A DNA stretch of 56,513 nt, filler included, from a bacterium (GCA_024278215.1; 3 parts of 3 records of this genome joined end to end with filler, not necessarily neighbours in it); one strand, 5' to 3'. Shown: positions 1 through 33,464, counted from the whole stretch's first letter. Program-made: numbers and translations. The notes: generated by a model not told the origin, from the letters alone.

Positions 1-999
1 CGCATCCATAAGAACATTTCCCAGAACCGTTGTATATGCGGCGTAATGAAACAGGATGTTAGCAGGCTGCGTATACACGTCTGAAAATAGAAACCCCGGA
101 TTCTTACTACAGTTGTATTTGAATCCTGCGCCTTCCGGCACGAACAGTGGCGCGAAACCGCAATCCGAATAGGGACGACCGAATTCGATATAATCATTCA
201 GAGGATAAAAACCCAGCATAACGACATCCGGTCGAATCAGGTTGAAGAACCTGTCGAGCATGACTTTCGCGAAATCCGTCGAGGTGCTTCCCACAGCCAG
301 TACGTACTGTGGCACCCCCACAGTCTCCTCGAGCAGATGCGGAAATCTTTTTTCCCATGGAACCTGTGCCGCTTCGGTCATCGAGTCACCCAGCCACACT
401 ATCCGTCTTTCACCGTCCGGCTTTTCCGGAGATGGTATAACGTGCCGGTCTGCCAGTGAGAATGTCTCCATCATAATTATATTGTTCTTATTAAGGCGGC
501 TGAGTTCCTGTGTGTCCGGTATCGGCTTGTGCAGCATAATATCTACGTCATCATAATTGACGCGTTCATATTTCCTGCCGATCCTGTTCTCGCTCAGTTT
601 GTCGATGTAGAAGCCTCGCAGAAGCAACTCGCATACGAACAGCGATAAGGAAGTGAAGACAAGAACAGCAATTATACCGAAATATAATCTGCGCGAATCA
701 ACCTTACTTGTCACCCACAAAAACAGCAGGGACGCCGCAACAAACAGATCGAGCAGCAGCATATCCTCGAACCAGAACGGCGCGTAAGCGCCGACCTTCA
801 TAACGCTGACAACAGTCAGATACGCGCATAGCCCCAGAGTCGCGAGAACCGATAACAGCGCATATACAGCGGAGCGCCTTTTTCCCTGTTGCGATTCACG
901 GATAAAATCGCCGCAAACGTATACCAGAAATATCGGGATAATAACTGCGTAATAGCTGTTCATGTCTTTGTTATAATAGTTTCTCCGGGAGAATTCCAT
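1..999 (-). CDS. Membrane-anchored SGNH/GDSL hydrolase-fold protein (3' end runs off the window)
   Basis: Not in the ORF track; translated by hand from ATG at 999 (alternative 963), open to the window edge. Several N-terminal hydrophobic helices, then RRIVWLGDSMTE (block I GDS) and PDVVMLGFYPLND (block III). Confidence 0.75.
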   Translation of the reverse strand, partial: MEFSRRNYYNKDMNSYYAVIIPIFLVYVCGDFIRESQQGKRRSAVYALLSVLATLGLCAYLTVVSVMKVGAYAPFWFEDMLLLDLFVAASLLFLWVTSKVDSRRLYFGIIAVLVFTSLSLFVCELLLRGFYIDKLSENRIGRKYERVNYDDVDIMLHKPIPDTQELSRLNKNNIIMMETFSLADRHVIPSPEKPDGERRIVWLGDSMTEAAQVPWEKRFPHLLEETVGVPQYVLAVGSTSTDFAKVMLDRFFNLIRPDVVMLGFYPLNDYIEFGRPYSDCGFAPLFVPEGAGFKYNCSKNPGFLFSDVYTQPANILFHYAAYTTVLGNVLMDA

Positions 1000-1049
1000 T
1001 CCGGCAATGATGGTATCACACTATATAGTGCAGCCGGCGGCGGAGCGAT

Positions 1050-2387
1050 TCAGTGTCTGAAAGACGCGGCGTTCATGATGCGCTGGGTCAGGGCGACAGT
1101 TCCTTCGTAGCCGAGGCAGGGGGCCGGGTAGATCATGTGTTTGTAGTATGAGGGAGAGCCGAGTTCCACGATGTTCAGTTCGAATATCAGTTGTTTTTTC
1201 ATTTCGATAGTCGGAGATATTATAATGGCGGGCAGGCGTTTATTTTTGTCTTCGTGAAATTCCGGCAGGCCGGCTACTTTATCCCAGGAAGGATTTTCGA
1301 GGATATTGAGGTCGTCGGGGCTGTTTTCTGCGGTAAGGCGAGAGAGCGCGCGGAGGAACTCGTCCGCGCCGCCGAGTGAGGAATCGAGAAGAACGATATT
1401 TTTCAGGTCCATGCCAAGCTCGAGGGCAAGTGCGGCGCAGCCCGCGGCAAGTGGTGTCGGCTGAATTATACATGCTGTGCTTTCACCCAGAAATCTCTTT
1501 GCAATGTCCAGCAGAATCCTGACCCGCGCTGTTTCGTTTTTTATGAAAGTCCCGGTTTTGTCCGGGTCGGCGCCTGCGGCGGCGGCGATGTTATTCAGCC
1601 ATTTTGTCGTTCCGGCTATGCCCATCGGGAGGTCTCCGGCGAGTGCAGGTCTGCCGCTTGTTTCCTCCAGTTCTTTTCTGTATTTGTTGAAATAAGGAAG
1701 AACAGAGTTGACGGCGCCTTTATGCGCGGACAGCAGTTGGCCCGCTCTCTGCCCCGATAAGAACCACGCGCCGGGGTGCAGGCCTATCGCTTCGACAAGC
1801 CTCTTAAGTTCCCTGATATTTGCTCCGTGGTCCATTTCATATCTTTCGAACGGGTATCCGAAGATGTTGACGGTTCCCGGTTCCGGCTCGAGTGTCCAGT
1901 CTACGAATCCCGCCAGCGCCCTGGTGAAATCCGCTAAACCATCGTACATGTCGCCCTCGTAGCCGGAAGTGGGCACAAAGACAAGGGGACAGCCAACTTT
2001 CGGCTGCAACAGTTCGACGCTTTCGCGCATATCAAAGCCGGTCAGTTCTATCACACTGGAAGTTGCAAGGGCAATAAGGCCGGGGCGGCGTCTTTCGTAG
2101 TTTGTCAGCACCGTGTCTTCTATCATCGCATGGCTGTCGGTCAGGATGTCCACACCCGAAACTTCCGTCCAGCAGATCTGGCTGAAACTTTCATGAAAAA
2201 GGTCGGAGATGTGTGTGCTGCCTTTCATTTTGCAGCCTGTGCCTTTGTGGAGTACAAGTATCGAATCCGGTATCGAGTGGCTCGCCATGAAAACGCCGAA
2301 GTAGCGGGCATGGTTCATCATGGGAATTCGGAATTCACGCAGCCTGTCTTCGGTTCTTTCGCTCAAGTTTCCCTCCGGGGTATTCAT
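1050..2387 (-). CDS. Nitrogenase component-1-like subunit (NifK/BchB/BchZ-like), one conserved Cys
   Basis: VLHKGTGC, ATSSVIELTGFD, VFVPTSGYEGDMYDG, TVNIFG, LPMGIAGT and C-terminal PCLGYEGT motifs of the oxidoreductase nitrogenase fold; 4-nt overlap with the upstream partner. Confidence 0.85.
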   Translation of the reverse strand: MNTPEGNLSERTEDRLREFRIPMMNHARYFGVFMASHSIPDSILVLHKGTGCKMKGSTHISDLFHESFSQICWTEVSGVDILTDSHAMIEDTVLTNYERRRPGLIALATSSVIELTGFDMRESVELLQPKVGCPLVFVPTSGYEGDMYDGLADFTRALAGFVDWTLEPEPGTVNIFGYPFERYEMDHGANIRELKRLVEAIGLHPGAWFLSGQRAGQLLSAHKGAVNSVLPYFNKYRKELEETSGRPALAGDLPMGIAGTTKWLNNIAAAAGADPDKTGTFIKNETARVRILLDIAKRFLGESTACIIQPTPLAAGCAALALELGMDLKNIVLLDSSLGGADEFLRALSRLTAENSPDDLNILENPSWDKVAGLPEFHEDKNKRLPAIIISPTIEMKKQLIFELNIVELGSPSYYKHMIYPAPCLGYEGTVALTQRIMNAASFRH

Positions 2388-3628
2388 TCGCGCCGGTCGG
2401 CAAGTGCGTTTTCTATCAGTGCAAGGTTCCGCAGGCAGCCCCTGTAACCTGTCAGAAGGCTGCCCAGCGCTATCATGGGGACTTTTGCCGGACTCACCAT
2501 TTCAGCCATTGCACCGACACAGTACACCAGATCGTATGCCTTTTTTCTCAGGGCGGGGGTCATCGAGACATTGTCCACGAAGATGTCGAAATCGGCGGTG
2601 ATTTTCATTTCATCCAGGAGTCTCGATATGAAAAGAACCCGGTCCGCCTCCGGGCTGCCCTGTATGAGAAGTGTGACATCGAACCCGAGTTCCCTGAATG
2701 AATTGACCTCACAAAGCCCGTTCTTTGCTGTTATATAAGGAACATAGTTTCTCTCGGTGCCGATATTATAAGCAAGCTTCAGGCCCTTCCAGTCCGCAGC
2801 TTTTGCGGAAAGCGCGTCAGCCGCTTCTTTTCTGTTTTCGTCGATTACCGCCTTCATTTCAGAGCGTCGTTTGAAGTGTCCGGCGATCTTCATAAAAAAA
2901 CTGTCTGTCCCGGCCACACCCGTTGGGATCGGAACTTCCATAAACGGTGTACCGACTTCCTTTTTTATTTTTTCCATAAGATTCGAGTACAGGTCTTTAT
3001 CAATGACGACATTCAACGCGCCCGCGGGCAGTCGACACCAGTCGGACAATGGCGATTTTTCGTTAAGGTGAACATTCACGCCGATTCCCGCCCCGGCAAG
3101 AATTTCTTCTATCTCTCCATCGTCCCACGCGAGCCCGATCAGGTTGACCGTCAGCGGTTGCGGATCGGGTTTGTTTTGTGCGGCACAGTACATCAGCTCA
3201 GCGTGCCTGTCGATAACCCGCTTCTGCGAAGTGTCGTCCAGTCCGGATGACGTCACTGCAATTACCGGGGTAGAGAGACTGCCTGCCGCGGCGGCTGCAA
3301 CGCTCTCGATGTCGTCGCCTATCAACTCCGAAAGGCAGCTTCCGAACACATAGATAGCAACCGGATTTTCCACTTCCGCCACAAGTTTGATACACTCGGA
3401 CAGCCGGTCGGTCGTTGTGCCGGCCATCACATCGCTCTCGCGCAGGTTTGTACAGAAGAAACGGCCGGGAAGCTGCCCGGGGATGCCTCTGGGCAATACA
3501 TTGGCACAGTCGGGATAGGAGTGAATTATCACGGCGAAGTCGCCGCCGGTTCTCATAAGACAGATGCAGAGCCCTTCGAGAAGACAGGCGCTCTGGGATA
3601 GTTTCGCGTGGTCGTATTTTCTTCTCAT
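2384..3628 (-). CDS. Nitrogenase component-1-like subunit (NifD/BchN/BchY-like), three conserved Cys
   Basis: SAC15LLEG, IIHSYPDC41, CTNLRESDVMAG, FGSC98LSELIGDDI, TVNLIG, PTGVAGTD; GYRG near the C-terminus. Confidence 0.85.
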   Translation of the reverse strand: MRRKYDHAKLSQSACLLEGLCICLMRTGGDFAVIIHSYPDCANVLPRGIPGQLPGRFFCTNLRESDVMAGTTTDRLSECIKLVAEVENPVAIYVFGSCLSELIGDDIESVAAAAAGSLSTPVIAVTSSGLDDTSQKRVIDRHAELMYCAAQNKPDPQPLTVNLIGLAWDDGEIEEILAGAGIGVNVHLNEKSPLSDWCRLPAGALNVVIDKDLYSNLMEKIKKEVGTPFMEVPIPTGVAGTDSFFMKIAGHFKRRSEMKAVIDENRKEAADALSAKAADWKGLKLAYNIGTERNYVPYITAKNGLCEVNSFRELGFDVTLLIQGSPEADRVLFISRLLDEMKITADFDIFVDNVSMTPALRKKAYDLVYCVGAMAEMVSPAKVPMIALGSLLTGYRGCLRNLALIENALADRRE

Positions 3629-3800
3629 AAATAATATAAAGACAGGTCGGATTGCGGATGAGAGACGCCCCTGATATAAGCAGCGCCGCGAAGAGCCGGT
3701 CTCTCTCGATTCATATCCGGGCGACGCATGGGAATTCTAACCCCGTCGCACCCGGCGGTCAAGGACGGGCATGTCTCCGCTGAGTGCGCCGGTAGCCGGC

Positions 3801-3838
3801 TTATCCCGATTCCGGCCCGCGCTGGTGAAATATGCGGG
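3801..3838 (-). repeat. Degenerate end of family-B miniature element in the divergent promoter region
   Basis: ttatcccgattccggcccgcgctggtgaaatatgcggg matches the reverse complement of the left end of the element at 50840. Confidence 0.7.
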
Positions 3839-3858
3839 CTGGCCGGCGACAGCCTGGT

Positions 3859-3887
3859 TTGATAGACTCCGCTCACGCGGTTATAAT
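3859..3887 (+). promoter_or_regulatory. Sigma70-type promoter for the nifH-like operon
   Basis: TTGATA (3859-3864), 17-bp spacer, TATAAT (3882-3887), about 60 nt before the ATG. Confidence 0.6.
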
Positions 3888-3944
3888 TGATTAACAGTCA
3901 TACCAATGCCGCAAATTGAAAGAACATAAGAAAGTCGATTGCTA

Positions 3945-4775
3945 ATGAGAAAGATAGCGTTTTACGGCAAAGGCGGCGCCGGCAAATCCACTATAGTATC
4001 GAACCTGAGCGTGGTCGCCGCCGAAGCGGGAAAAAAAGTTTTGCAGGTAGGCTGTGATCCGAAACACGACTCGACCCGCAGTCTGCTCGGCGGGGCGCGC
4101 CCGGCGACGGCTGTCGAACTGTTCCAGAAAAAACGTCCCGAAAAGATATGCGCCGACGAGCTTGTATTCAAGGGTGTGCTGGGCATAGATTGCATCGAGG
4201 TGGGCGGCCCCGAGCCGGGCGCGGGCTGCGCGGGTCTCGGTATTATCAAAACCATGGAACTCATGAAATCGCTCGGGCTGATGAGCCGGAATTACGATTT
4301 CATCTTTTTCGATGTTCTGGGCGATGTCGTATGCGGGGGGTTTGCCACACCCATGCGTCTTAAGTTCGCCGACGAAGTCTATGTCGTCATTTCCGGGGAA
4401 ATGATGTCTCTTTACGCGGCAAACAACATCTGTCGCGGTATTCTAAGATATGCGAAGATGGGCAAAGTGCGGCTCGGAGGTTTCATCGGCAACCAGAGAA
4501 GTCCCGGCGCGCCGACGGAAATACTCACGGCTTTCGCCGACAGGATCGGTGCCCCTCTGGTATTCCTTATGCCCTGGAGCAGCGACCTGCCGGAAGCCGA
4601 GCGAGCGAGGAAAACCGCCGTCGAGTTCGCTCCCGATTCGGAAACTGCGCGCAGATTCCGCCGGCTTGCAGAAAAAATCGATAACAACACCGGTCAATGT
4701 ATCCCGGAACCGATGACCGACGAGGAATTCGAATCGTTTTTCGCACGAAACTCGCAAGCCGGAAGCAACTGCTGA
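3945..4775 (+). CDS. NifH/BchL/BchX-family iron protein (ATP-dependent reductase)
   Basis: IAFYGKGGAGKST P-loop, QVGCDPKHDST, EVGGPEPGAGCAG, FDVLGDVVCGGFA, MSLYAANNI; both [4Fe-4S] Cys present. ATG at 3945 preferred over TTG 3939. Confidence 0.93.
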   Translation: MRKIAFYGKGGAGKSTIVSNLSVVAAEAGKKVLQVGCDPKHDSTRSLLGGARPATAVELFQKKRPEKICADELVFKGVLGIDCIEVGGPEPGAGCAGLGIIKTMELMKSLGLMSRNYDFIFFDVLGDVVCGGFATPMRLKFADEVYVVISGEMMSLYAANNICRGILRYAKMGKVRLGGFIGNQRSPGAPTEILTAFADRIGAPLVFLMPWSSDLPEAERARKTAVEFAPDSETARRFRRLAEKIDNNTGQCIPEPMTDEEFESFFARNSQAGSNC

Positions 4776-4814
4776 ACAGACTTTGCAAGTGGCGCAAACC
4801 TTAACGAGGACTCC

Positions 4815-6617
4815 ATGAGTGATATAACGCGAAACGCGCCGAGAGGTCCGATGGCTCTGATCCGGCTGGGATATGCCTGCAACAACAACTGCATCTTCTG
4901 CCATAGCAGCGACCACCGCGGCGCGGGCCACGAACAGGATATCGACCGGATAAAGAGAAAGATACGGCTGGCCTCGGAACACGGAGCCGGCACAGTTGTT
5001 TTTTCGGGTGGTGAACCGACTATAAGAAAAGATATCCTTGATATATTTGAATACACGCATGAGCTGAACCTGGGTGTGGGTCTCATAACAAACGGACGGA
5101 TGTTCTGCTACCCGGATTTTACCCGCCGCGTCGCAGACATCGGACTTGAATATATACTTGTATCAATCCATGGTCCGGATGCGAAAACGCACAACATGCA
5201 CACCGGCGTCGATTCTTTCCGGCAGTCGCTTGGCGGCCTCGCGGCCATATCCGGTTCGGCTGCCCGCGTGGTTGTGAACACGGTTCTGACACGCCGCAAT
5301 GCCGCCGGTCTCGCACAGACCGCCCGGTTGCTGGAAAGATTCGCGCCCATCCATTTCAAGATTTCGCTGCCCGAGCCCAGGGGGGCGGTTCTCAATCACT
5401 TCGACATTGTTCTGTCTACTCATGCCGCGGCCGGGGCGGTCGAGAACTTCCTGATGGAATATGAGCCCGGAAACGGGCTGACTGCGGGTATCGACGGCCT
5501 GACGCCATGCCTGCTGGCCGATTATTCATCACTGAACGACGACTTTTTCACTCACGGGTTCTACCTCGTGAGCGAACCCGGCGAGGACGACTTCTTCCCG
5601 CCTTCGCACGGGCTCAGGGGATTCGACCGCAACTGCATGTTCTGCTCGATGCGTCACCTGTGCCCCGGTATCTATGTCAAGTACTTCGAAATGTTTCCCG
5701 GCATCTCTTTGACACCGCTCAAGCGGGAAGTATCGAACGCCGTGCGCTTCGACATCGAAGAAGTGAGGCAGGGAAGAGATATGGGGAATTGCGAATGGGA
5801 GACCCTCCGCTGTGCCGACCCGGCGCGCCGTCTGGCGGTCAGAAAAAAAGACCGGCTCGATATATTCGTCACACGTGAGATCCAGACGGCAACCCCGGAA
5901 CTGATGACACTGAAATACGATATCGAGCAGGTTTATAAAACAAAGAAAGAAGTGGAGATAAAGCGGGGCTTTCCGGCCCATCTGCGGAAATTGCAACTGA
6001 CGGAAAAGTGCCGGGCGTGCGGCAGGTTAAGACTCTGTCCGGGCGTATACACAATAGCGCGGAAACAGCCTTTCGCCACGTTGAAAAAGCGGGTATATGA
6101 GCTGCTGGACACACTCGCGGGCCGGGTCTTCGAGGTCGGCTGCGGCTCCGAACCATACGCCGCGACCATGAAAAAGTCGATAAGTTCGGGCCGCATTTCT
6201 TACTATCTCGGGATAGACCCGGCACTGCCGCTGGAAATAAAAACAGAAATGCAGGGCCGTTATGTTCTGAAGAAAGGACTGTTCGAGGAATTTCGCGCGG
6301 AAGGTGAAAAGTTCGATTCTGTAATCATGTTCCGCTCATACAATCACCTTGCGGACCTCAGGCGTGCCGGCTCCGTCCTGTCTGGAATAACAACTGCGGG
6401 ATCGAAAATCATCATTATAGAAGATTGCAAGTGTATCGAATTGAAAAAGGAAGAACCCGTTGCCGGCGGGCAACCCGCCCACAGGTTCGAACACATGCGC
6501 AACCATACGGCACAGAACGCCGCGGAATTCCTGCGGCGGACCGGGTTCGAGCCGGAGGTCCTCTGGGAACCGGACATGAGCAGCGCCGGTTGCTGGGCTG
6601 TTGCGGCGCAGAGATAA
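4815..6617 (+). CDS. Radical SAM protein with two CxxCx5CPG motifs and a C-terminal class I methyltransferase domain
   Basis: CNNNCIFC, FSGGEPT, ITNGR, VSIHG; CMFCSMRHLCPG and CRACGRLRLCPG; VFEVGCGSEP, YLGIDP, FDSVIMFRSYNHL; RBS GAGGA. Confidence 0.88.
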   Translation: MSDITRNAPRGPMALIRLGYACNNNCIFCHSSDHRGAGHEQDIDRIKRKIRLASEHGAGTVVFSGGEPTIRKDILDIFEYTHELNLGVGLITNGRMFCYPDFTRRVADIGLEYILVSIHGPDAKTHNMHTGVDSFRQSLGGLAAISGSAARVVVNTVLTRRNAAGLAQTARLLERFAPIHFKISLPEPRGAVLNHFDIVLSTHAAAGAVENFLMEYEPGNGLTAGIDGLTPCLLADYSSLNDDFFTHGFYLVSEPGEDDFFPPSHGLRGFDRNCMFCSMRHLCPGIYVKYFEMFPGISLTPLKREVSNAVRFDIEEVRQGRDMGNCEWETLRCADPARRLAVRKKDRLDIFVTREIQTATPELMTLKYDIEQVYKTKKEVEIKRGFPAHLRKLQLTEKCRACGRLRLCPGVYTIARKQPFATLKKRVYELLDTLAGRVFEVGCGSEPYAATMKKSISSGRISYYLGIDPALPLEIKTEMQGRYVLKKGLFEEFRAEGEKFDSVIMFRSYNHLADLRRAGSVLSGITTAGSKIIIIEDCKCIELKKEEPVAGGQPAHRFEHMRNHTAQNAAEFLRRTGFEPEVLWEPDMSSAGCWAVAAQR

Positions 6618-6664
6618 GAATAGTGAAGCATCTCGTTCCCAAAAACATACAAGTAATCGTCCTT

Positions 6665-8752
6665 ATGTCTATACAAAAACGCACACCTGGCAAAACCTCG
6701 CTCCGCTCGTGGCCCGGCATCCTGTGGTTTGTTGTCGTCATGCTGATCGCCTCTCCATGCCTCGGGTATCCCAGGATGGGACCGGCTATGGACCGTGACA
6801 TTGCAAGGCTTGTCTATACGAACAGTACCTCTTATCCGCTTCCCGAGGGCTGGGAGATACAGAGCCGGAGCTTTACCGATACGGACATTACGGTAACTCT
6901 CAAATCGGAGACCGGCGACGAAGCCGTTGTCCGGCTTTCTTATCCCTGGCTTCCGGTTCGCGGGGAAATCGTGGGGAGAACACTCAGTTTCAGGCTGGAA
7001 ATACTGACCGCTGAAGGCGCGGAAGCCCGAACAGCCGCCCTGGATTTCTGCAACAGAATAAGAAAAAACGACAGGGTATATTTTTTCGCATCGAAAAATA
7101 TGCTCAAGCGTGAACTCTGGACTCAATATCTGTTCAGGCGATTCATCTTTACTCCCATTATTGATTACAAACTATTATTTGTGATATGCCCGCTCCTGGG
7201 ATTATATATGATGAAATCTTCCATAGTAAGAAAATATTTCCTGCCGGAGGGAGCTTACGGTCGTCTCGCGCTTCTGGCGGTTTTCGTTCTTGGATTGACC
7301 CTGAGGCTGTACGTTTCGCCTTCGGTGCCGATACACTGCAACTCACACGGAATCGGTGAAGTCAGATTGTATCTCTCACTCATGCAGGACGAAACGCTGG
7401 AGACAGCATACGGGAGAGCTTTTCCATCTATAATGAGATGGATTCTGGGATTTATCGGGCCGGTGGAAAAGAACATTTTTCTGATAAATAAAATTCTGGG
7501 CGCGCTCGCCATTCCGGCAATATTTTTGTTTGCGAAAGGGCTTACGGGGTCCGACGCGGCTGGGATTTTTTCCGCGTTTTTCCTCAGCTTGTCCCCGGCG
7601 CAGGTATGGATGGCAGGCACTGAATCGCAAATTCCGATGTACATGCTCATCGGCCTCACCGGTCTCGGGCTACTGTGCCTGTCGGCTCGAACGAGGAGTA
7701 TCTCCATTCTGTGGCTCGCGGCTATCATGATCTCTTATGCGTCTTCTTTAAGGATACTGACGGTGCTGATAGTTCCCGTCGCAGTCGCCACAGGGCTATA
7801 CCTGGGGGTTCATAAAAAAAAGGATATTCATGACACATACTTGAAACATGTCATAGTGTGCCTGGCGGTGGCTGCGATATGGATGACCTTTCATTATCTC
7901 TCTATTTCGGCAATGACGGGCAAGGGATGGTCGGAATCGAATCCGCTGAAGGTTCTGTGTATTTTCTTCTTTCACGATGGACTGTCTTTTAAAAATACTA
8001 TTCTCGACCCGACTCTGACACCTTTTATCGTACCATTCGCTGCCGCCGCCGCTTATGTTTATGCCTGGAAAAGGGACAGGCGATTCGCGCTTTTTGCTAC
8101 GGTTGTTTTCCTGATCGCGGTTCCGATGACGTTTTCGGTGCTGGACTGCCGGACATCGGCCGTAAGATATCAGACTCAGGCACACTGGGTATATTTCATA
8201 CTTGCGGCATCTCTTTTCACCAGTATTGCGCCCGAATATCTTCGCCGTAAGCGGAAAACCCTGGCAGTGCTCGTGATTATTCTTACTGTTGTGGGTTCCG
8301 TTCCGGGACTCGCCATGCTCTACAGAGGCGACGAAGAAATGAATGAATACCGGTTCATGCGGGAAACCGCGCATAAGATTCCGGCGGGTACGGTGATAAG
8401 GCTACCTGTCGAAAACGCGGGCAACGGCAAATTAATAACCGATTTCCCCGATTATATCAATAGCCATATTGTCGTGAAAGACAGGGAGAAAGCCCCTGAC
8501 GGATACAGAGAACTCATCTACGACGGCCTGGACTGCTATAGATTCACAACAGTAGAAGAAAGGGCAACCGACTTTCTCCCTGACGGCAAAAACAAACAGT
8601 GTGTAGAGATATGTGACGGGCGACTCGTACCGCTTTATGAGAAAAAACTCGATGCCGGAGTTCCGTTCATCGGATACCATAAGCGATTCTATAAATTAAG
8701 TACTAAAAAACCAGTAGTCGGTTTCTATGAGTGTCTTCCTGATGGAAAATAA
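6665..8752 (+). CDS. Polytopic membrane protein, GT-C (ArnT/PMT)-like glycosyltransferase, paralogue 1
   Basis: Signal-like N-terminus, about 100-aa soluble domain, many TM helices with INKILGALAIPAIFLFAK...AFFLSLSPAQVWMAGTE, Cys-containing C-terminal domain. Start chosen at ATG 6665 because the ORF-track start (6425) overlaps the rSAM gene. Confidence 0.7.
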   Translation: MSIQKRTPGKTSLRSWPGILWFVVVMLIASPCLGYPRMGPAMDRDIARLVYTNSTSYPLPEGWEIQSRSFTDTDITVTLKSETGDEAVVRLSYPWLPVRGEIVGRTLSFRLEILTAEGAEARTAALDFCNRIRKNDRVYFFASKNMLKRELWTQYLFRRFIFTPIIDYKLLFVICPLLGLYMMKSSIVRKYFLPEGAYGRLALLAVFVLGLTLRLYVSPSVPIHCNSHGIGEVRLYLSLMQDETLETAYGRAFPSIMRWILGFIGPVEKNIFLINKILGALAIPAIFLFAKGLTGSDAAGIFSAFFLSLSPAQVWMAGTESQIPMYMLIGLTGLGLLCLSARTRSISILWLAAIMISYASSLRILTVLIVPVAVATGLYLGVHKKKDIHDTYLKHVIVCLAVAAIWMTFHYLSISAMTGKGWSESNPLKVLCIFFFHDGLSFKNTILDPTLTPFIVPFAAAAAYVYAWKRDRRFALFATVVFLIAVPMTFSVLDCRTSAVRYQTQAHWVYFILAASLFTSIAPEYLRRKRKTLAVLVIILTVVGSVPGLAMLYRGDEEMNEYRFMRETAHKIPAGTVIRLPVENAGNGKLITDFPDYINSHIVVKDREKAPDGYRELIYDGLDCYRFTTVEERATDFLPDGKNKQCVEICDGRLVPLYEKKLDAGVPFIGYHKRFYKLSTKKPVVGFYECLPDGK

Positions 8753-10877
8753 GCCCGCCGACCGGCACACCCGACAGGTGTGGTACGAGAAGCGAAGCGC
8801 ATTATCCTGCAAACACGCGGTTGCCGTTCTCTTCGCGTTCCTTTTTCTTTTTACCTGTTCTCATCGTGTATTTTCACTTCCGATAATGGGCCCGGAAACC
8901 GGGCCGCGAATAGAGAGCCTCATAAGCCGAAGCGCCGATCGTTTCCCGCTTCCCGACGGTTGGGACATCGCCGGGTATCATTACACTGATTTCGACGTTT
9001 TTGTCCGCCTCGAAAAACCGACCGGCGCACAAGCTGTTTTCCGTCTTGCCTGCACTTCGCTTCCGTCGAAAAACACACTTGTCGGCGAATCCCGCAATTT
9101 CAGGATGGAACTCTCCGACTTCTCCGGCGTGAGCGCGCCAGAAACGCTCCGGGTCGGCGACTCGCTTCTGGAAAGAATAAAACATAATGATCAGCCATTG
9201 TTCTTCGATCAGCCCGACATGCAGAACAGAGAAGGCATATATGAATTCCTGTTTAGGAAATATTTGTTTATACCTTTGATTTTTGCAGGTTTTGCAGCCG
9301 GTGTTTTGCTCCTGCTTGTCGGCTTCCCGCTTATCCGGAAGCACCTGCTGCCTGGAAATGTAGTATGCGCCGTGATCCTGGCGTTCCTGCTGATTGCAGG
9401 CGCGGCGTTAAGGTTTGGCGTCGGCCCCGGAGCACCTGTCCACAACAACGGGCATGGAGTCCGCGAGCTGAGATCGATCCTTTACACAGAGTCGCCCGAG
9501 CAGAAAGAGATGCTGTACGGCAGCGTATATACAACCCTGATGAAGAGTCTGGCCGGTGTCGCGGGGAACACCGACAGTGCGGTCTTTAACATCAACAGGA
9601 TTTTGGGAACACTCGCCGTTCTTGGAATGTTCATGTTGGCGCGTGCACTGCTCTTTTCCGAAACCGCCGCACTCACAGCCGCTGCCGCATTCAGTTTCAA
9701 CCCCGGTCTGGTGTGGCTTTCCGGCTCGGAGTCCCCGGCGTCCATGTATCTGTTTTTTGCCCTGTCGGGATTCGCTTTTACGGTCGTTTCCGCGAAAACC
9801 CGAAGTTGGCGTCTACTGTGGCTGTCGTTGATTTTTATATGTGCGGCTTCCACTATGAGGTTGCTTACGATGGCTGCCGCTCCGGTCGCTATACTGCTGT
9901 TCGTCTACTCTTCATATCAACCTGCAAGTCCCGGCAACGATGCCGGAGACAAGAACAGTTTCAAACAACACGCATTACTTTGTTTCGGGATATTGATTGT
10001 CTGGTTGTGCTTCCATTGTCTCACTCTTGACCCCGACAATGCGGCAAACGGGATCGCGCGCATTTCCGCGTCAATGTACCTGCACAACATGCGAATATAC
10101 AATATACTGTTCGACCCGACATTGACACCTGCCTGCCTGCCGTTTTTCGCGGCGACCGGATTCCTTCTGTTGCTGTGGAAGCGCCCGGTGCTTGCCGCTT
10201 TGCTGGCGGTTGTTTTCGTTCTCATAGTGCCGGTGAGTTTCACTACCATGGCCGACCGCACCGACTTCCTGCGCTATCAACCCCAGACACACTGGCTATA
10301 CTTCCTCCTTACGGCTTCGCTCGTGGATTTCATCGCGAAAAGTTCTTTGTCACGTCGAATCGCGGATGTCGTCGCCCTGTCTGTCCCGGCGGCAGTTGTG
10401 ATGTTTTCAATAGCCGGCCTCACATTCCTTGCTGCCGGAAACGAGGAAATAGCGGAGTATCGTTTCATCAGCAACATGTCCGCATCGTTGCCCCCCGGGA
10501 CCGGTATCGCACTTCCCGTGCGCCCGGATGCCGATGAACGAATGATCTCCGATTTTCCGGATTATCAGGGAAGATTCAAGTTGAATAAAACAGGAATCAT
10601 CGGGAGAAAAACCGACGAACTGATATACACAGGGCTCGACTGTTACCGCTACAACGACATGAAAGAAATGAGTCGGAAAGCAGAGGCCGGAGGCATGAGA
10701 CCGGAATGCGCGTCGATCTGCGGCGGGCACCCGATTCCTGTCAGAGAGAAAAAACTGAAAGTCGAAATTCCCGACAGTGTTCTGCACAGGAGATATTTCA
10801 TGCTTGGAACCGACCGGCCAGTCATCGGATTCTACAAATGTCCGGAACACGTGGACAATAAACGCGAGGGTAATTGA
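8727..10877 (+). CDS. Polytopic membrane protein, GT-C-like glycosyltransferase, paralogue 2
   Basis: Collinear similarity to paralogue 1 (PLPxGWxI, HxNxHG, DPTLTP, RYQxxxHW, EYRF, DFPDY, GLDCYR, PVxGFY); overlaps the upstream stop (start 8727 or 8742). Confidence 0.7.
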   Translation: MSVFLMENKPADRHTRQVWYEKRSALSCKHAVAVLFAFLFLFTCSHRVFSLPIMGPETGPRIESLISRSADRFPLPDGWDIAGYHYTDFDVFVRLEKPTGAQAVFRLACTSLPSKNTLVGESRNFRMELSDFSGVSAPETLRVGDSLLERIKHNDQPLFFDQPDMQNREGIYEFLFRKYLFIPLIFAGFAAGVLLLLVGFPLIRKHLLPGNVVCAVILAFLLIAGAALRFGVGPGAPVHNNGHGVRELRSILYTESPEQKEMLYGSVYTTLMKSLAGVAGNTDSAVFNINRILGTLAVLGMFMLARALLFSETAALTAAAAFSFNPGLVWLSGSESPASMYLFFALSGFAFTVVSAKTRSWRLLWLSLIFICAASTMRLLTMAAAPVAILLFVYSSYQPASPGNDAGDKNSFKQHALLCFGILIVWLCFHCLTLDPDNAANGIARISASMYLHNMRIYNILFDPTLTPACLPFFAATGFLLLLWKRPVLAALLAVVFVLIVPVSFTTMADRTDFLRYQPQTHWLYFLLTASLVDFIAKSSLSRRIADVVALSVPAAVVMFSIAGLTFLAAGNEEIAEYRFISNMSASLPPGTGIALPVRPDADERMISDFPDYQGRFKLNKTGIIGRKTDELIYTGLDCYRYNDMKEMSRKAEAGGMRPECASICGGHPIPVREKKLKVEIPDSVLHRRYFMLGTDRPVIGFYKCPEHVDNKREGN

Positions 10878-10902
10878 CGACAGTCGTCTTGATGCTGAAT
10901 AA

Positions 10903-10977
10903 CCCGCATATTTCACAAATACGGGCTATGGACAATAGCAGCCGACCGCCGCCGAATCAGAATTCTGCAATTGGCTC
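10903..10977. mobile_element. Chimeric miniature-element remnant (family-B left end fused to family-A right end)
   Basis: cccgcatatttcacaaatacggg followed directly by ctatggacaatagcagccgacc...aattctgcaattggctc. Confidence 0.75.
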
Positions 10978-10987
10978 TTTAGTAAAA

Positions 10988-12244
10988 TCAGGGGCAGGTT
11001 CTGTGCGCCTTTCGTACACTTCTTCCGCAGAAGTACGGTGTGGGGTCTATGGCGACGCCGTTTTTCCTGATCTCGAAGTGGAGGTGGCTCCCTGTAGAAT
11101 AGCCGCTGCTGTCCGCTTTCATTATCACCTGTCCTTTTCTCACTCTGTCGCCCTTTCTGACGAGCAGTTTCAGTCCGTGAGCGTAGACAGTGGCATAGCC
11201 GGAACCGTGCCTTATAACGATGTGTCTTCCATAGCCGCGTCCATTCGATGCGCTGAAAACCACACCGTCCGCGGCAGCGCAGATGTCCGATCCGTAGCGC
11301 GCACGCAGGTCGACACCCTTATGGTTGGTCGAAGCGCGCCGTGTAGGACTCTTGCGCGGACCAAACGGAGAAGTGATATAAAAACTCCGCCCGCAAACCG
11401 GAGATGAAAACCTTCCGGTGAATGACGGAACAACAGGCTGCTGGCCGTGCGCCCGGCGCAACTGATTCTCTATTGCCTGATTCTCTTTTTCAAGCTGCGC
11501 ATATTCCTCCTCCAGCAGTCGACGCTCCTTTTGTATGCTTAGCAGAGCCTTCCTTTTTATACTTTCCAGCTTCGCATTGTTAGCTTTCTTCTCCGCAAGT
11601 ATTCTTTTCTTTGTTTCCATCTCACGAGCGTTTCTGTCCACCACCGCGCGTTTCGACACTACATCTTCGTGCAACACCTTTAGTTTTTTCATCACATCGA
11701 GATCATGCTGAGTCAGAAGTTGCAAATAGTAGACACGTGTTATCAGATCGCTGAAACTCGATGAGTTGAACAATACTTCAAGATAACCGGCCCGCCCATT
11801 TTTATAATACGCTACGAGTCGCTCCTCGTACCTTTTTCGGTAGGTCTCGAATTTATCTTTCGAAATCTTCAGTTGCTTCTCGAGATATGAACTCTGTGCC
11901 TCTGTCTTTTTCAGATCCCGTGTTGTTCTGTTCAGGTCTCTCTGCGTCCGGTAAAGTTCATTCTGCACTTTATCAAGCTGTGTACTGACACCTTTTTCTT
12001 CCATCATTTTCTTGCTCAGCTCTTCCATTAGCCGCTTCTGCCTTTTTTCATTAACTTTTCGGACCTTTGCCAACTCCGACTCGTTATACGTATCTGCAGA
12101 TCTGATTTGAAGTGAAAGGGGAGACAAACATACAAGGCAAAAAGTGAAAAATATCATTAAGAAACAGTTTATGCGAAAGTCGTCTTTTATATGTGTAGAT
12201 TTCACCAACAATACCCAATTGTACCTTTTCGTTATCATTATCAT
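10988..12244 (-). CDS. EnvC/NlpD-like coiled-coil protein with M23 peptidase domain
   Basis: Hydrophobic N-terminal segment, long coiled coil with FSDLITR, M23 motifs NHKGVD, YAHG, STGSHLHFEIR. True start may be 12205 or 12157. Confidence 0.88.
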   Translation of the reverse strand: MIMITKRYNWVLLVKSTHIKDDFRINCFLMIFFTFCLVCLSPLSLQIRSADTYNESELAKVRKVNEKRQKRLMEELSKKMMEEKGVSTQLDKVQNELYRTQRDLNRTTRDLKKTEAQSSYLEKQLKISKDKFETYRKRYEERLVAYYKNGRAGYLEVLFNSSSFSDLITRVYYLQLLTQHDLDVMKKLKVLHEDVVSKRAVVDRNAREMETKKRILAEKKANNAKLESIKRKALLSIQKERRLLEEEYAQLEKENQAIENQLRRAHGQQPVVPSFTGRFSSPVCGRSFYITSPFGPRKSPTRRASTNHKGVDLRARYGSDICAAADGVVFSASNGRGYGRHIVIRHGSGYATVYAHGLKLLVRKGDRVRKGQVIMKADSSGYSTGSHLHFEIRKNGVAIDPTPYFCGRSVRKAHRTCP

Positions 12245-15223: not shown

Positions 15224-16576
15224 TCAGACCAATAACTTACCGGCAATCGTTTCAGCCGCCGCGCCGATACTCATCGTTTCACTCCTGCGGGTGTCGAGTT
15301 CGCGAACCTCGGCATTATCCGGGTCGCCCGCCCTGAGAATGACACCGAACGCCGCGCTCCGTTTTTGCGCCAGTTGCATTGTTTTTCCGACAGTTCCGCC
15401 AGTCAGGGCAACGTCGACTTTTAGTTTTTTCGCCCTTAATGTTTCGCCGGCGGCGATTAGAGCACGTCCGCTCACGCCCGTTCCATCGGCACAAACGACG
15501 ACATCGATTCCCGATTGGTTTTCGGGCAACATTCCACGCTCTTTCATCAGCACAAGTATGCGCTCGAAGCCGATGCTGAAGCCAGTTGCCGGAATATCCC
15601 TGTTGCCGCAGAACATGCCGACAAGCCTGTCGTAGCGTCCGCCGCCCGCAAGTGAGAATCCCACATCGGGATGCGTGATCTCGAATATCGGGCCGGTGTA
15701 ATAGTCCATGCCGCGCACGAGAAATGGATCGAAAACTATGTCTATCTCCGCAACGCCCTCGCACAAATCGAGTATCTCCTCGATGCGGCCGATCAGCGCG
15801 TCCGCATCTTCGCCGCTGACTGCTTCGCGCATGGCCGCTATGCGCCCCTCACTGTTCGCGGCTTCTGTCGACTTGTAGAACGCGCTCAGATTCTGCGCGG
15901 TTTCGCCGGACGCGCCTGTCTTTTGTAATTCTTCGCACACGCCGCCGATGCCGAGCTTATCGAGCTTGTCGACCAATCTGCAACCTTCGCCAAGCAGGTT
16001 TTCAGGCAGGCCCATTGCGCCGAGCAGCAGAGGCGCGAGCGGCCTGTTGTTTATTCTCAGCGTGAGCCCTTCACCGAATCCGATTCTTTTCAGGCATGTA
16101 GCTGTAGCGCAAATAACATCAGCTTCCGCCATCATCGAATCCGAACCGATGACATCCACATCGCACTGCACGAATTCCCTGAAACGACCGAACTGAGGCC
16201 GGTCGGCGCGCCACACAGGCGCAATGTGGTATCTTTTGAACACAGGCGGCAGTTCGTTCAGATGCGCCGCCACAAAGCGGGCGAAAGGTACCGTAAGGTC
16301 GAAGCGCAGTCCCATATCGGCAAGCCTTGCCCAATCCTGCGCTCCGATAGCCTTCGACAGCTTATTGCCGCGTTTGAGCACTTTAAACATCAGCTTTTCG
16401 TTTTCGCCGCCGCCCTTGCCCTCGAGCACGTCCACATTCTCTACAACCGGCGTGTCGATGGGTTGATAGCCGTACTGCTCATAAGTCTCCGATATAATGC
16501 GCTTCAGGTACTCGCGTGCCTTAAAATCGTCAGGCATCAGGTCCCTGAATCCCTTTGGTGGTTGTATCCTGCTCAC
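15224..16576 (-). CDS. hisS: Histidyl-tRNA synthetase
   Basis: PKGFRD, LRFDLTVPFAR, WRADRPQFGRFREFVQCDVD, LVRGMDYYTG, AGGGRYD, GFSIGFER. GTG 16576 preferred; ORF track starts at 16618. Confidence 0.95.
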   Translation of the reverse strand: MSRIQPPKGFRDLMPDDFKAREYLKRIISETYEQYGYQPIDTPVVENVDVLEGKGGGENEKLMFKVLKRGNKLSKAIGAQDWARLADMGLRFDLTVPFARFVAAHLNELPPVFKRYHIAPVWRADRPQFGRFREFVQCDVDVIGSDSMMAEADVICATATCLKRIGFGEGLTLRINNRPLAPLLLGAMGLPENLLGEGCRLVDKLDKLGIGGVCEELQKTGASGETAQNLSAFYKSTEAANSEGRIAAMREAVSGEDADALIGRIEEILDLCEGVAEIDIVFDPFLVRGMDYYTGPIFEITHPDVGFSLAGGGRYDRLVGMFCGNRDIPATGFSIGFERILVLMKERGMLPENQSGIDVVVCADGTGVSGRALIAAGETLRAKKLKVDVALTGGTVGKTMQLAQKRSAAFGVILRAGDPDNAEVRELDTRRSETMSIGAAAETIAGKLLV

Positions 16577-16757: not shown

Positions 16758-18653
16758 TCAACCGTGAAAAATCGGTCTCTTGCTGACAAGTCGCGGCATG
16801 GGAATCCGCCGGAACGGCATCCCCTTGGACTCCGTGTGTATGCGATCGACCAGTTCGTCGAATGTCATTTTCTGTTGTTTGCCCGTCTCGCGTATGCGCA
16901 CCATCAGTTCGCCCGAATCAATCTCCTTCTGCCCGATTACAAGCACGTAAGGTATCCACTCGCGCTCGGAGTTGCGTATCTTTTTACTTACTGTGTCGGG
17001 CCTGTCGTCGAGGTCGCAGCGTATATTCGCCCTGTTGAACCTGTCGCATAGTCCGGTGGCGTATTCGAGGAATTCGTCTTTCACGGGGCAGAGCCGCACC
17101 TGCGTTGGTGCAAGCCATACCGGGAACATTGCCGGTTTTCCCTGGTTTATATCTATTGCGATATTCTCGAGGATCGTGCATAGAGTGCGCTCGATACTGC
17201 CGAAACTCGACGCGTGCAGAATCACCGGCACAGGGTGCTTTTTTCCGTCGTCGTCAACATAGCCGATGTCGAAGCGCTCGCCGTCTTTAACATCCCACTG
17301 CACCGTGGACACCTGTATATTGCTTTCGTCCTCGGTGATGCTCTGGAATTCGTTTTTGATCGCGTAATAATGCGTCATCTCCGGCATAAGTTTGAAGAAA
17401 GACGGAACCTTCATTGTTTTACATATACCGAGCAGCCACTCCTTGTTGTCCTCGTAGAAGTCGATCGTGCCCTCCCAGCCCAGCACCCAGCGACCCCGCG
17501 CGATGATGTCGTCCATCAGGCGCTGGAAAAGATAGCAGAGATCTTCGAATTCTTTTTTCGCCTCATCTGTTGTCGCGCAGGCCGCGTGCATGTCCGTCAT
17601 CATGAAGTTGCGCACACGCTTGAGACCGCTCACCTCGCCCTCCTGCTCGTTGCGGAAGCACGTGGCCTCCTCGTAGACCTTCAGGGGCGACTGCTTATGC
17701 GAGAAGCGGACCTTCTGCATGAATGGAAAGCCGAGCGGGTCGGAAGCGTAGCGCAGATAGCAGACGCCGCGCCCGCCGTCGACTTTGTAGTCGCGCTCGT
17801 GGAACTCGCCCATCAGCTCGCCTACTATATTATTGTCGCCTCGAATAATCAGCGGGTTCTTCATCTCCATCGCGCCCCATTCATGTGCCAGCATCCCGGC
17901 ATATTCCAGGATAAGTTTCTGGATGAAGAGCCCCTTCGGATACCATTTATAATGTCCCTTTTCCGACGCGTCGCAGTAGTCGACAAGCTCGAGACGCTGC
18001 ATGAATTCGATATGTTTAGGCGCGCGCGTCGTGTCCACGCCTTTGCCGAATTCGTTCGAAACAAATCGTTTGAGAAGTTTGTACACCGGCTTTTTTTTCT
18101 TGAAAATCGCGTTCTTTTTGAATTTGTCCGGCGTTACTTCATATTCGTTGCCTTCGATGTCCACGCAGATAAATTTTGTAAACTTGTCGCCCCTGACCTC
18201 ATCTTCGGACTTCTCCGCCTTTGCTTCTTCCTCATCAATAGAAAAGAAACCGCTCCATTCGGACAGAGGATGTCCCTTTGCGGAAACTTCGAATGCCTTG
18301 TACCAGCCGAACGGCGCACGCACCACCTCCAGTTTTTCCGCAAGCATCTTCTTAGCGTTTTTCAGCACAGAAAGCGCGGTGCGCGGCGACGAAGGGTCCT
18401 GTGTCAGGTGCACATAAGGATAAACAATAACCTTTTTAACCTTTAGTGTCTCCGCTCTCTTGAGTGTGTCGTCAATAAGCTTCCGCGTTACGACAAGAGG
18501 CGCGGCCTCGTCTGCTTTTTCAACGCCCACATAAACTACAATACAATCTTCTTCGAGACTGAATTCCGTCTGCGAAATCGATTCCGCCCCTTTCATGGCT
18601 TTTTCTGTCGCCTTGAATCGAAAATAATTTGTGTGTATACCAAGTGTCCTCAT
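16758..18653 (-). CDS. thrS: Threonyl-tRNA synthetase, archaeal type with archaeal editing domain
   Basis: N-terminal VYPYVHL...RAPFGWYKAFEVSAKGHPLSE editing domain; FRNEQEGEVSGLKRVRNFMMTDMH; ILHASSFGSIER; WLAPTQV anticodon domain; RBS GGGGAG. Confidence 0.93.
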   Translation of the reverse strand: MRTLGIHTNYFRFKATEKAMKGAESISQTEFSLEEDCIVVYVGVEKADEAAPLVVTRKLIDDTLKRAETLKVKKVIVYPYVHLTQDPSSPRTALSVLKNAKKMLAEKLEVVRAPFGWYKAFEVSAKGHPLSEWSGFFSIDEEEAKAEKSEDEVRGDKFTKFICVDIEGNEYEVTPDKFKKNAIFKKKKPVYKLLKRFVSNEFGKGVDTTRAPKHIEFMQRLELVDYCDASEKGHYKWYPKGLFIQKLILEYAGMLAHEWGAMEMKNPLIIRGDNNIVGELMGEFHERDYKVDGGRGVCYLRYASDPLGFPFMQKVRFSHKQSPLKVYEEATCFRNEQEGEVSGLKRVRNFMMTDMHAACATTDEAKKEFEDLCYLFQRLMDDIIARGRWVLGWEGTIDFYEDNKEWLLGICKTMKVPSFFKLMPEMTHYYAIKNEFQSITEDESNIQVSTVQWDVKDGERFDIGYVDDDGKKHPVPVILHASSFGSIERTLCTILENIAIDINQGKPAMFPVWLAPTQVRLCPVKDEFLEYATGLCDRFNRANIRCDLDDRPDTVSKKIRNSEREWIPYVLVIGQKEIDSGELMVRIRETGKQQKMTFDELVDRIHTESKGMPFRRIPMPRLVSKRPIFHG

Positions 18654-31562: not shown

Positions 31563-31662
31563 NNNNNNNNNNNNNNNNNNNNNNNNNNNNNNNNNNNNNN
31601 NNNNNNTTAATTAATTAANNNNNNNNNNNNNNNNNNNNNNNNNNNNNNNNNNNNNNNNNNNN
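31563..31662. other. Artificial contig linker
   Basis: 100 nt: N run, TTAATTAATTAA (stops in all six frames), N run. Confidence 0.97.
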
Positions 31663-31667
31663 AATCG

Positions 31668-32345
31668 TTGCGTCTGGATAGGCTGCTGATCATATTCGCG
31701 AAGCTGCCGGAGCCGGGCAGAGTAAAAACAAGACTTGCGGCGGCTATCGGCGTCGATAACGCCTGCGAGATATACAGGTTGTTTATTGACGCAACTGTCG
31801 AAAGATCAACCGACGCCGAGGACACCGATGTGAGATTGTGCGTCACGCCCGATACGGTGGCGACGAAAGACTATTTCAAGCGGCGATATGGCGCAATGGA
31901 TATTCATTTTCAGCGCGGCCCTGATCTTGGGGCGAGGATGTTTAACGCGCTGGCCGGCGGCTTCCACGATGGATATAAGCATATTTGCATTATCGGAACC
32001 GATGTACCGCATTTACGCGTCGAAACAATAAACGAAAGTTTCAATAATCTGGGGAAAGCCGACATTGTTATTGGCCCCTGCAATGATGGCGGCTATTATC
32101 TGATAGGGCAGAGCAGGCCGGTCCCGGAGCTTTTCAGCAATATGGAATGGAGCACGGACAGGGTTCTGCGCGAGACAATCAGTCGCGCGCGCACGCTTGG
32201 CCTGAAAATAGAGGAAACAGAATACATGAGTGATATTGACAATTTTGACGACTTGCTTTCTGTAAGAGAAATTGCAGACGATGCCGGTGATGATTGTCTT
32301 GCGCGGATAAACAGGTTGACGGATGCTATAAAGGATGGTTCGTGA
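31668..32345 (+). CDS. DUF2064/TIGR04282-like GT-A fold transferase (start possibly cut by the gap)
   Basis: IIFAKLPEPGRVKTRL, QRGPDLGARM, IIGTDVP, IGPCNDGGYYLIG, MEWST, DIDNFDDL. Confidence 0.88.
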   Translation: MRLDRLLIIFAKLPEPGRVKTRLAAAIGVDNACEIYRLFIDATVERSTDAEDTDVRLCVTPDTVATKDYFKRRYGAMDIHFQRGPDLGARMFNALAGGFHDGYKHICIIGTDVPHLRVETINESFNNLGKADIVIGPCNDGGYYLIGQSRPVPELFSNMEWSTDRVLRETISRARTLGLKIEETEYMSDIDNFDDLLSVREIADDAGDDCLARINRLTDAIKDGS

Positions 32346-33342: not shown

Positions 33343-33347
33343 GAAAA

Positions 33348-33464
33348 CCACCGATGAAATCGGTGGATGTAACGAGCTGGAGGCTCGACATCCTTAAACA
33401 ACCAACAAAGTTGGTCGTTTAACGGTTAAACCTACTTTATCAAAGCCACCGACAAGGTCGGTGG
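33348..33464. mobile_element. Palindrome-bounded element resembling IS200/IS605-derived ends
   Basis: Related hairpins ccaccgatgaaatcggtgg (33348-33366) and ccaccgacaaggtcggtgg (33446-33464), with accaacaaagttggt between; no transposase. Confidence 0.55.

Follow-up and report, generated by a model that had tools for sequence, protein, structure and literature searches.

What does a nitrogenase-like reductase do when its genes lie beside those for a radical S-adenosylmethionine (SAM) enzyme fused to a methyltransferase, two membrane proteins resembling glycosyltransferases of the C fold (GT-C) and a membrane-anchored SGNH protein? The question is raised by the first 10,877 nucleotides of a 56,513-nucleotide stretch of bacterial DNA (GCA_024278215.1; the whole stretch is called the window here), where, as an earlier note on this DNA had described, seven genes stand in two tight divergent units. 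We name the reductase components NflH, NflD and NflK. The reading that we favor, with a probability of roughly 55%, assigns the locus to an extended His-Xaa-Ser (Hxs) system as its arm for reduction and decoration; that system would mature an exported His-Gly-Ser peptide.

Correcting the earlier note, the window consists of three joined contigs (1-31562, 31663-45261 and 45362-56513), separated by N spacers with a TTAATTAATTAA linker at 31563-31662 and 45262-45361, and the features flanking these spacers are not true neighbors. The locus is on contig C196 of genome G000, which carries an Hxs cassette on contig C205 and a second reductase on contig C30. All genomic inference in this work draws on metagenome-assembled genomes (MAGs).

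Association of the reductase with Hxs cassettes

Among the 13 species genomes of the same phylum in the collection searched, four encode a window-type NflD, namely G000 itself, G006 (82% identity), G008 (67%) and G002 (50%). In G008, orthologues of the radical SAM-methyltransferase fusion (65% identity), GT-C 1 (60%) and GT-C 2 (54%) sit on contig C39 inside an Hxs cassette. Its genes are all co-directional and encode, in order, a repeat protein, an HxsD-like protein, HxsB, a 124-residue His-Gly-Ser peptide, three HxsC-like radical SAM proteins, a membrane protein, the fusion enzyme, a GDSL protein, a PMT_2 protein, GT-C 1, GT-C 2 and another PMT_2 protein. The same co-directional cassette, with GT-C 1 and GT-C 2, occurs on contig C51 of G006; orthologue identities across these two cassettes are 60-66% for GT-C 1 and 54-67% for GT-C 2, and GT-C 2 follows GT-C 1. 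The cassette of G000 on C205 encodes an HxsB scoring 499.5 bits against the NCBIfam cut-off of 370 and a peptide, HxsA4, scoring 68.8 against 55, whose end consists of His-Gly-Ser repeats followed by Trp. Its three radical SAM proteins reach 68.7-107.2 bits against the HxsC cut-off of 267.9, and its HxsD-like protein 33 against 50.

Furthermore, the GDSL gene that comes immediately after nflH in G006 is orthologous (50% identity) to the one in the G008 cassette. Modules made up of the peptide with its radical SAM proteins, of the fusion enzyme with the GDSL and GT-C proteins, and of NflHDK with the SGNH protein are linked pairwise across genomes. The cassette type together with GT-C 1 and GT-C 2 is present in exactly three genomes (G000, G006 and G008), all among the four with NflD, an overlap with a hypergeometric P of 0.014 over the 13 genomes when relatedness is ignored. 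Since the fusion enzyme and the GT-C proteins are parts of Hxs cassettes in sister genomes, a ribosomal peptide is the likelier substrate.

The Hxs cassettes of this phylum hold further proteins of interest. The repeat protein encoded before the HxsD-like gene (C205, L057 3-2117; L054 39-2123; L059 3-731) is about 700 residues long, with Cys-rich internal repeats, tail-fibre-like motifs and no family match, and a relative of it adjoins a paralogue of the radical SAM-methyltransferase in G008 (C276); it could be another substrate or partner. A second Hxs-type cassette, on contig C37 of G000 (L086 10013-12105) and in G011 (L067), encodes three His-, Ser-, Asn- and Thr-rich proteins some 290 residues long, all of which end in a short His-x-Ser run and then Trp, a different substrate class for the same maturases. 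Additionally, three tandem genes for His-Gly-Ser/His-Ala-Ser peptides lie beside one HxsB gene in G005 (L060 3202-4273), a genome without window-type NflD.

In Myxococcota, HxsB scores above cut-off in 31 of the 201 genomes sampled, and the D profile matches 18 of the 201 at E<=1e-25. The best nine of these matches (E<=1e-34) all fall in genomes with HxsB above cut-off and the other nine in genomes with none, a co-occurrence (9/9 vs 31/201) with P = 1.6e-8. The genomes of loci L015-L018 have HxsB in 4/4 cases, three above cut-off and the fourth split over two contig ends.

The genes are also clustered in Myxococcota. Within 11 kb, L102 encodes HxsB, a His-Gly-Ser peptide and a full-length homologue of the radical SAM-methyltransferase whose domains come in the same order, together with two D/K pairs (NflK and NflD, plus a second K and D), H and a GDSL protein; four B12-radical SAM genes come after the cluster. 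The same parts are spread over 15-45 kb in L103, G062:C26 (~36 kb) and G015:C1 (~45 kb, including L017). The Myxococcota homologues of the fusion enzyme are full-length, 30-34% identical to the window enzyme and encoded beside HxsA genes. Moreover, HxsC-like genes 50-53% and 44-47% identical to G000 cassette genes follow D-K-H in L017, L029 and G062. The earlier note had read the locus as a free-standing pathway to a small building block and had missed the Hxs link; the presence of the fusion and GT-C genes in sister Hxs cassettes speaks against that reading, as does the fusion enzyme being the nearest neighbor of the peptide gene in all four Myxococcota clusters. As a separate observation, the Myxococcota-type cluster of Nfl and radical SAM genes at L029 contains a PemK/MazF-like toxin-antitoxin pair at 15676-16334, recognized by sequence appearance only.

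The wider neighborhoods bear on the model of the earlier note, which we consider unlikely. In it, the building block on which the reductase and the radical SAM enzymes work is not a peptide but, for instance, a sugar linked to a nucleotide or to polyprenyl phosphate; GT-C proteins then transfer it to an envelope acceptor, and SGNH proteins attach or remove acyl groups. That acceptor could even be the His-Gly-Ser peptide. Pfam assigned, among 104 open reading frames (ORFs) flanking 10 distant loci, Radical_SAM to 20, B12-binding to six, PMT_2 to four, epimerase/dehydratase families to three, and GT2 and NTP-transferase to two each, a tally that is approximate because ORFs in the high-GC loci were picked by a home-made GC3-weighted procedure that may miss or merge genes. 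All four PMT_2 genes adjoin D/K directly (L017, L018, L031 and L032, four of the 10 loci), as a sugar-transfer pathway would predict; L018, L031 and L032 are close relatives, however, so that these loci amount to about two lineages. Sugar chemistry is further suggested by the epimerase/dehydratase, carbamoyltransferase, NTP-transferase-HAD fusion and GT2 genes of L029, by the class II aldolase, NTP-transferase, GT2 and GDSL genes around the second reductase on C30, by a cytidylyltransferase at L014, and by matches of the HxsC-like radical SAM domains to models of the nucleotide-acting enzymes MoaA and BlsE, all below cut-offs. Nevertheless, L102, the most compact cluster, has neither a glycosyltransferase among the 10 of its ORFs scanned with Pfam nor a tblastn match to the GT-C queries, and GT-C 1 and GT-C 2 carry an HxNxHG motif instead of the Asp-Glu motif of PMT_2-positive proteins (see below). 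Glycosyltransferase genes are found in two of the four Myxococcota clusters, as one GT2 gene in G062:C26 and two PMT_2-type GT-C genes in G015:C1. The linkage of GT-C and SGNH genes to the reductase that the earlier note proposed to test in other genomes thus exists, with PMT_2 beside D/K in four of 10 loci and GDSL after H in G006 and L102, and is not universal.

Returning to the Hxs assignment, several points weigh against it. HxsB, present in 10 of the 13 phylum genomes, is far commoner than NflD, present in four, and the reductase would therefore be an optional add-on; His-Gly-Ser peptides also occur in genomes without Nfl. In G000, a different contig carries each of the cassette (C205), the window locus (C196) and the second reductase (C30), no exact end overlap of 15-200 bases joins C196 or C205 to any contig, and binning could in principle have mixed organisms, at an estimated contamination of 1.26%. 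The H/D/K locus of G008 lies apart from the cassette, among other radical SAM genes. For the Myxococcota co-occurrence, the E<=1e-34 threshold was set after the data were seen (at E<=1e-25, 9/18 have HxsB), the seed genome G015 is included, and related genomes are not independent. A pattern scan found no His-x-Ser repeat gene in the window or in the available flanks of 14 distant loci; repeat peptides surfaced only in longer stretches, 22-36 kb away in two contiguous assemblies. Finally, the nucleotide-sugar genes of L029, L014 and C30 suit a non-peptide substrate equally well.

Family and metal sites of the reductase

Against the NCBIfam equivalogs, the window proteins stay below every cut-off in the nitrogenase superfamily: nifD 49.6 bits (cut-off 653), nifK 22.1 (427), nifH 334.6 (394), CfbC 313.1 (402), CfbD 29.9 (268.4), BchL 214.7 (345), BchX 196.1 (331), and BchN, B, Y and Z 22-55 (324-912). 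The absence of nifB/E/N, bch and cfb genes asserted in the earlier note was borne out for contig 1 to 30 kb (19 ORFs, Pfam), and for nif genes it extends to the whole genome, which is 95% complete and contains only four Oxidored_nitro matches, making up two D/K pairs, and no match to nifB.

The 278-residue H ORF keeps the P-loop GKGGAGKS and the cluster cysteines 97 and 132. In D, the 16 aligned family members all share C41 and C98, and C15 and C59 are almost invariant; C15, C41 and C98 align with three P-cluster positions of NifE/MarD-type proteins, and C59 is an extra conserved cysteine. K retains only C52, which aligns with the Cys of the HGxxGC segment in MarK and AnfK and is present in 15 of 17 family rows, while the other two aligned positions are not Cys. 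Nitrogenase has six P-cluster cysteines, three per subunit; three (D) plus one (K) of them are thus kept, a pattern pointing to one [4Fe-4S]-type site between the subunits, like that of DPOR and COR. The iron-molybdenum cofactor (FeMo-co) of nitrogenase is held by Cys275 and His442 of the alpha subunit. The window D has no cysteine opposite the cofactor-ligand Cys of MarD in an alignment to 9d9u chain A, and no FeMo-co ligand column is conserved across the 16 D family members.

These features led us to reject a true nitrogenase (Nif/Vnf/Anf), given the missing FeMo-co ligand, the 3+1 cysteines, the lack of nifB and scores below the nif cut-offs; judged by its sequence, the enzyme is a nitrogenase relative unable to fix nitrogen. 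DPOR/COR was rejected on the Bch scores and on the separation of D/K from the Bch references in the trees, and CfbCD, whose catalytic subunit is homomeric, on the CfbC and CfbD scores and on the distinct K gene coupled to D. The D/K family is rare, with 17 matches among 5.8 billion proteins in a word-based search and 124 representatives at E<=1e-30 among 1.84 billion proteins in a profile search.

The trees, which the earlier note had proposed, used Nif references from a Nitratidesulfovibrio plasmid, Bch references from a Novosphingobium plasmid and one CfbC-named protein; they were built without Mar, Isr, CfbD or authentic Elusimicrobia Group VI sequences and give no placement relative to those. 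The 17 D-like rows group together in a single clade (support 94) and the 17 K-like rows in another (support 96), both outside NifD/E/K and BchN/B/Y/Z, with congruent internal topologies and with the four Bch references on long branches. The window D and K cluster first with three same-phylum relatives and next with Myxococcota and metagenome loci. Together with the scores below cut-off, these separate clades place the proteins outside Nif, Bch and Cfb; nesting there would have counted against the earlier note. For H the outcome differs: the window H and 10 relatives form their own clade (11 rows, support 98) on the NifH/CfbC side, whereas a second deep clade (support 97), beside BchL/BchX and on long branches, unites the H domain from C30 with five H proteins of the Myxococcota type, which accompany related D/K there.

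A nitrogenase-like Group VI has been described from groundwater Elusimicrobia, Gracilibacteria and Myxococcales (Meheust et al. 2020, 10.1101/765248; PMC13474568) and, in a 2026 review (PMC13474568), is credited with at most four of six P-cluster cysteines, no FeMo-co ligands, no NifB and no characterized member. The divergent D/K of the window resemble it in each of these sequence features and accompany an H with intact P-loop and cysteines. The surroundings are likewise rich in radical SAM genes (20 of the 104 flanking ORFs, and the radical SAM-methyltransferase in the H operon), and there are relatives in Myxococcota MAGs. By these features D/K fit Group VI. The H clade near BchL/BchX, with the C30 and Myxococcota-type proteins, matches the published Group VI position; the window H, on the NifH/CfbC side, probably comes from another lineage than these Group-VI-like H proteins. 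The suggestion in the earlier note that the locus belongs to the Elusimicrobia-type paralogue clade therefore receives support for D/K, which match the Group VI description, and is doubtful for H, which lies outside the Group-VI-like clade.

The function proposed for Group VI is reduction of a tetrapyrrole to a new cofactor (10.1101/765248, repeated in PMC13474568), by analogy with DPOR, COR and CfbCD. We think this highly improbable for the window enzyme. The 3+1 ligands do resemble those of BchNB and BchYZ, and B12-binding radical SAM proteins are frequent neighbors (6 of the 104 flanking ORFs; four in L104 and one in L014). By contrast, no family of a tetrapyrrole pathway appears in the first 30 kb of the window, on C30 or in the Hxs cassettes, nor among the 25 families that recur most often in the 104 flanking ORFs; D/K fall outside the BchN/B/Y/Z references, and the steady partners of the reductase are Hxs genes. 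The window thus differs from Group VI as published both in its H and in its context, a His-Gly-Ser peptide with GT-C/SGNH proteins and not a tetrapyrrole.

Even less credit goes to the idea that the Hxs adjacency is incidental and the enzyme has an unrelated role, for example reductive C-S cleavage for sulfur acquisition as in methylthio-alkane reductase (MAR) or isethionate reductase. It draws on the closest solved structures by sequence, 9d9u and 9fmg, with 74 bits for D and 47 for K; 9FMG is named in the methylthio-alkane reductase paper. The G008 H/D/K locus, not beside the cassette, also accords with it. MAR is reported in that paper to use nitrogenase-type metalloclusters, whereas in the window D the cofactor position holds no cysteine and the genome has no nifB/marB homologue; we rejected MAR itself on these grounds and on the low scores to PDB entries. 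Furthermore, no sulfur-transport or assimilation genes were seen next to the locus, and chance is a poor explanation for the fact that the reductase co-occurs with HxsB in a second phylum as well.

The second reductase locus of G000 (C30, L011 5830-12070) encodes an H-D fusion of 879 residues, a K-like protein and a radical SAM protein with two domains; the GDSL, aldolase, NTP-transferase and GT2 genes mentioned above are its neighbors. Its K type is found in six of the 13 phylum genomes, including all four with window-type D, at parallel identities, and it adjoins window-type D/K in L017, L102 and G062; both sets of reductase proteins probably serve a common system. In Myxococcota, the frames around the D-profile matches of G039, G143, G149, G153, G159 and G178 are 881-1090 residues long, which suggests that H-D fusions like that of C30 are common there; separate H and D matches in one frame were seen only for G039 (L103).

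Gene layout and the membrane proteins

The features of the locus are collected in Table 1. D and K are translationally coupled, the D stop and K start overlapping by 4 bp (ATGA). The promoter-like sites between the divergent units, at 3859-3887 on the plus strand (11/12 matches) and 3762-3734 on the minus strand (10/12), are consensus matches only. Position 1 is a contig end, and the SGNH gene therefore lacks about 40 C-terminal residues, which were not found at any contig end. The plus unit terminates at a convergent M23 peptidase gene (10988-12244), and orf177 (10874-11407) was discarded as spurious, as it overlaps that gene on the opposite strand and has no family match. Beyond the M23 gene lie housekeeping genes for LexA, RNase H and His- and Thr-tRNA synthetases; the threonyl-tRNA synthetase (16758-18653, minus strand) has an N-terminal editing domain, PF08915 (135 bits), that Pfam labels archaea-specific.

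Table 1. Features of the reductase locus on the first contig of the window.
Feature	Position	Strand	Details
Membrane-anchored SGNH/GDSL-like protein	1-999	-	333 aa present, C-terminus cut
NflK-like subunit	1050-2387	-	445 aa; Oxidored_nitro 146.9 bits (Pfam)
NflD-like subunit	2384-3628	-	414 aa; Oxidored_nitro 132.2 bits (Pfam)
Divergent intergenic region between D and H units	3629-3944		promoter-like sites
NflH-like Fe protein	3945-4775 (ATG 3945; ORF opens TTG 3939)	+	Fer4_NifH 327 bits (Pfam)
HxsC-like radical SAM + class I methyltransferase fusion	4815-6617	+	600 aa; 39-bp gap after H
GT-C 1, divergent PMT_2/ArnT-like membrane protein	6665-8752	+	47-bp gap after fusion gene
GT-C 2, GT-C 1 paralogue (35% identity)	8727-10877	+	overlaps GT-C 1 end

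The fusion enzyme matches Radical_SAM with 76.4 bits and Methyltransf_23 with 25.5, just below the Pfam cut-off of 27, and contains a CNNNCIFC motif; its top NCBIfam matches, HxsC4 and HxsC, are below cut-off (HxsC 71 vs 267.9). A complex prediction of its radical SAM domain with the HxsD-like protein scored 0.00 and counts neither way.

The GT-C proteins have 9-10 predicted hydrophobic segments and match Pfam families below their cut-offs (PMT 19.1, PMT_2 18.4 and YfhO 15.2 bits, the PMT and PMT_2 values being those of GT-C 2). They nevertheless resemble PMT/ArnT-type GT-C enzymes in their many membrane segments and by profile: hhalign compared a GT-C 1/2 profile with PMT_2-positive proteins at 97.8% probability (E 1e-12), and a protein atlas grouped GT-C 1 with PMT_2 clusters (score 0.98). 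GT-C glycosyltransferases carry an acidic catalytic motif in the first outer loop. The HxNxHG motif pointed out in the earlier note is real: it is invariant in GT-C 1/2 (5/5 sequences; in GT-C 1 as PxHxNxHG) and occupies the loop that has WFDEW in PMT_2-positive proteins, and the Glu after it is not invariant. Since HxNxHG replaces the Asp-Glu motif of loop 1, sugar transfer by GT-C 1/2 is not assured, and their chemistry may differ from ordinary sugar transfer.

The SGNH protein scores 20.7 bits against the Lipase_GDSL_2 cut-off of 32.9 (Pfam); four hydrophobic segments fall within its residues 15-130, and GDS and ND blocks precede the truncated C-terminus. In SGNH hydrolases, block I is GDS, block III GxND and block V DxxH. 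The orthologue in G006 (59% identity), encoded downstream of K, has a tail without a clear DxxH; its gene (L012/L024 4866-5977) is split over two frames near 5093-5096, by a frameshift or an assembly error.

Proposed mechanism and its relatives

The observed gene content, spacing, family placement, ligand pattern, clustering and co-occurrence lead us to infer a substrate, a reaction and an order of steps, as follows. NflH, ATP-dependent and with a subunit-bridging [4Fe-4S] cluster, would hand low-potential electrons to NflD/NflK, which would hold one inter-subunit [4Fe-4S]-type site (three Cys from D and one from K) and no FeMo-co-like cofactor. NflD/NflK would reduce a bond, most likely C=C or C=N within a conjugated group, that the HxsB/HxsC-type radical SAM enzymes had introduced into the peptide in the cytoplasm, and the HxsC-like radical SAM-methyltransferase would modify the peptide further. 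After export, the GT-C and membrane SGNH proteins would modify or anchor the peptide on the outward-facing side of the membrane. The C30 set, with its H-D fusion and K, would be part of the same system.

The closest model for the peptide side is the antiphage HXS system of Enterobacteria, HxsABCD (Li et al. 2026, PMC13128918). In E. coli, HxsB, HxsC and HxsD mature HxsA in the cytoplasm and the product acts in the periplasm; HxsA changes by +8 Da, read as gain of a carbon minus four hydrogens. Like it, the cassettes described here combine a radical SAM/SPASM maturase (HxsB) with radical SAM enzymes of the HxsC type, a small protein resembling HxsD and a substrate with His-x-Ser repeats. Unlike the E. 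coli system, they have three HxsC-like genes instead of one, together with the radical SAM-methyltransferase fusion, four to five GT-C proteins, SGNH proteins and nitrogenase-like reductases. Moreover, HxsA4, with one membrane/signal segment and about 10 His-Gly-Ser repeats, is only 121 residues long here, too short to accommodate a peptidoglycan-binding domain.

For the reductase, DPOR and COR (BchLNB and BchXYZ) are comparable two-component, ATP-driven enzymes in which the inter-subunit cluster is held by three D-type residues and one K-type residue, and their reduction of double bonds in a conjugated ring may be the best model for the chemistry of the window enzyme, which differs from them in its sub-threshold scores, its place outside the Bch references and the lack of bch genes nearby. 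By analogy, an unsaturated HxsA-like bridge is a plausible target for DPOR-like reduction. In its fullest form, to which we give somewhat less than an even chance, the proposal is that an ATP-driven, nitrogenase-fold reductase acts post-translationally on a radical SAM-cross-linked or methylated His-Gly-Ser peptide, which becomes an exported, GT-C/SGNH-decorated envelope effector akin to the HXS barrier to phage entry.

In the literature searched, we found no publication joining HxsB or any His-x-Ser term with nitrogenase, and none joining Group VI, nitrogenase-like and glycosyltransferase. With tetrapyrrole reduction the only published idea for Group VI, the context described here offers a concrete alternative, a small genetically encoded peptide; as both the peptide and the enzymes acting upstream can be named, the question is testable by co-expression and mass spectrometry. 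The HXS system would likewise be extended to a much more elaborate variant that adds methylation, reduction and, probably, glycosylation steps and is found in two or more phyla whose bacteria are uncultured or little studied. If the proposal is true, the nitrogenase superfamily would gain its first peptide substrate, and Group VI its first function.

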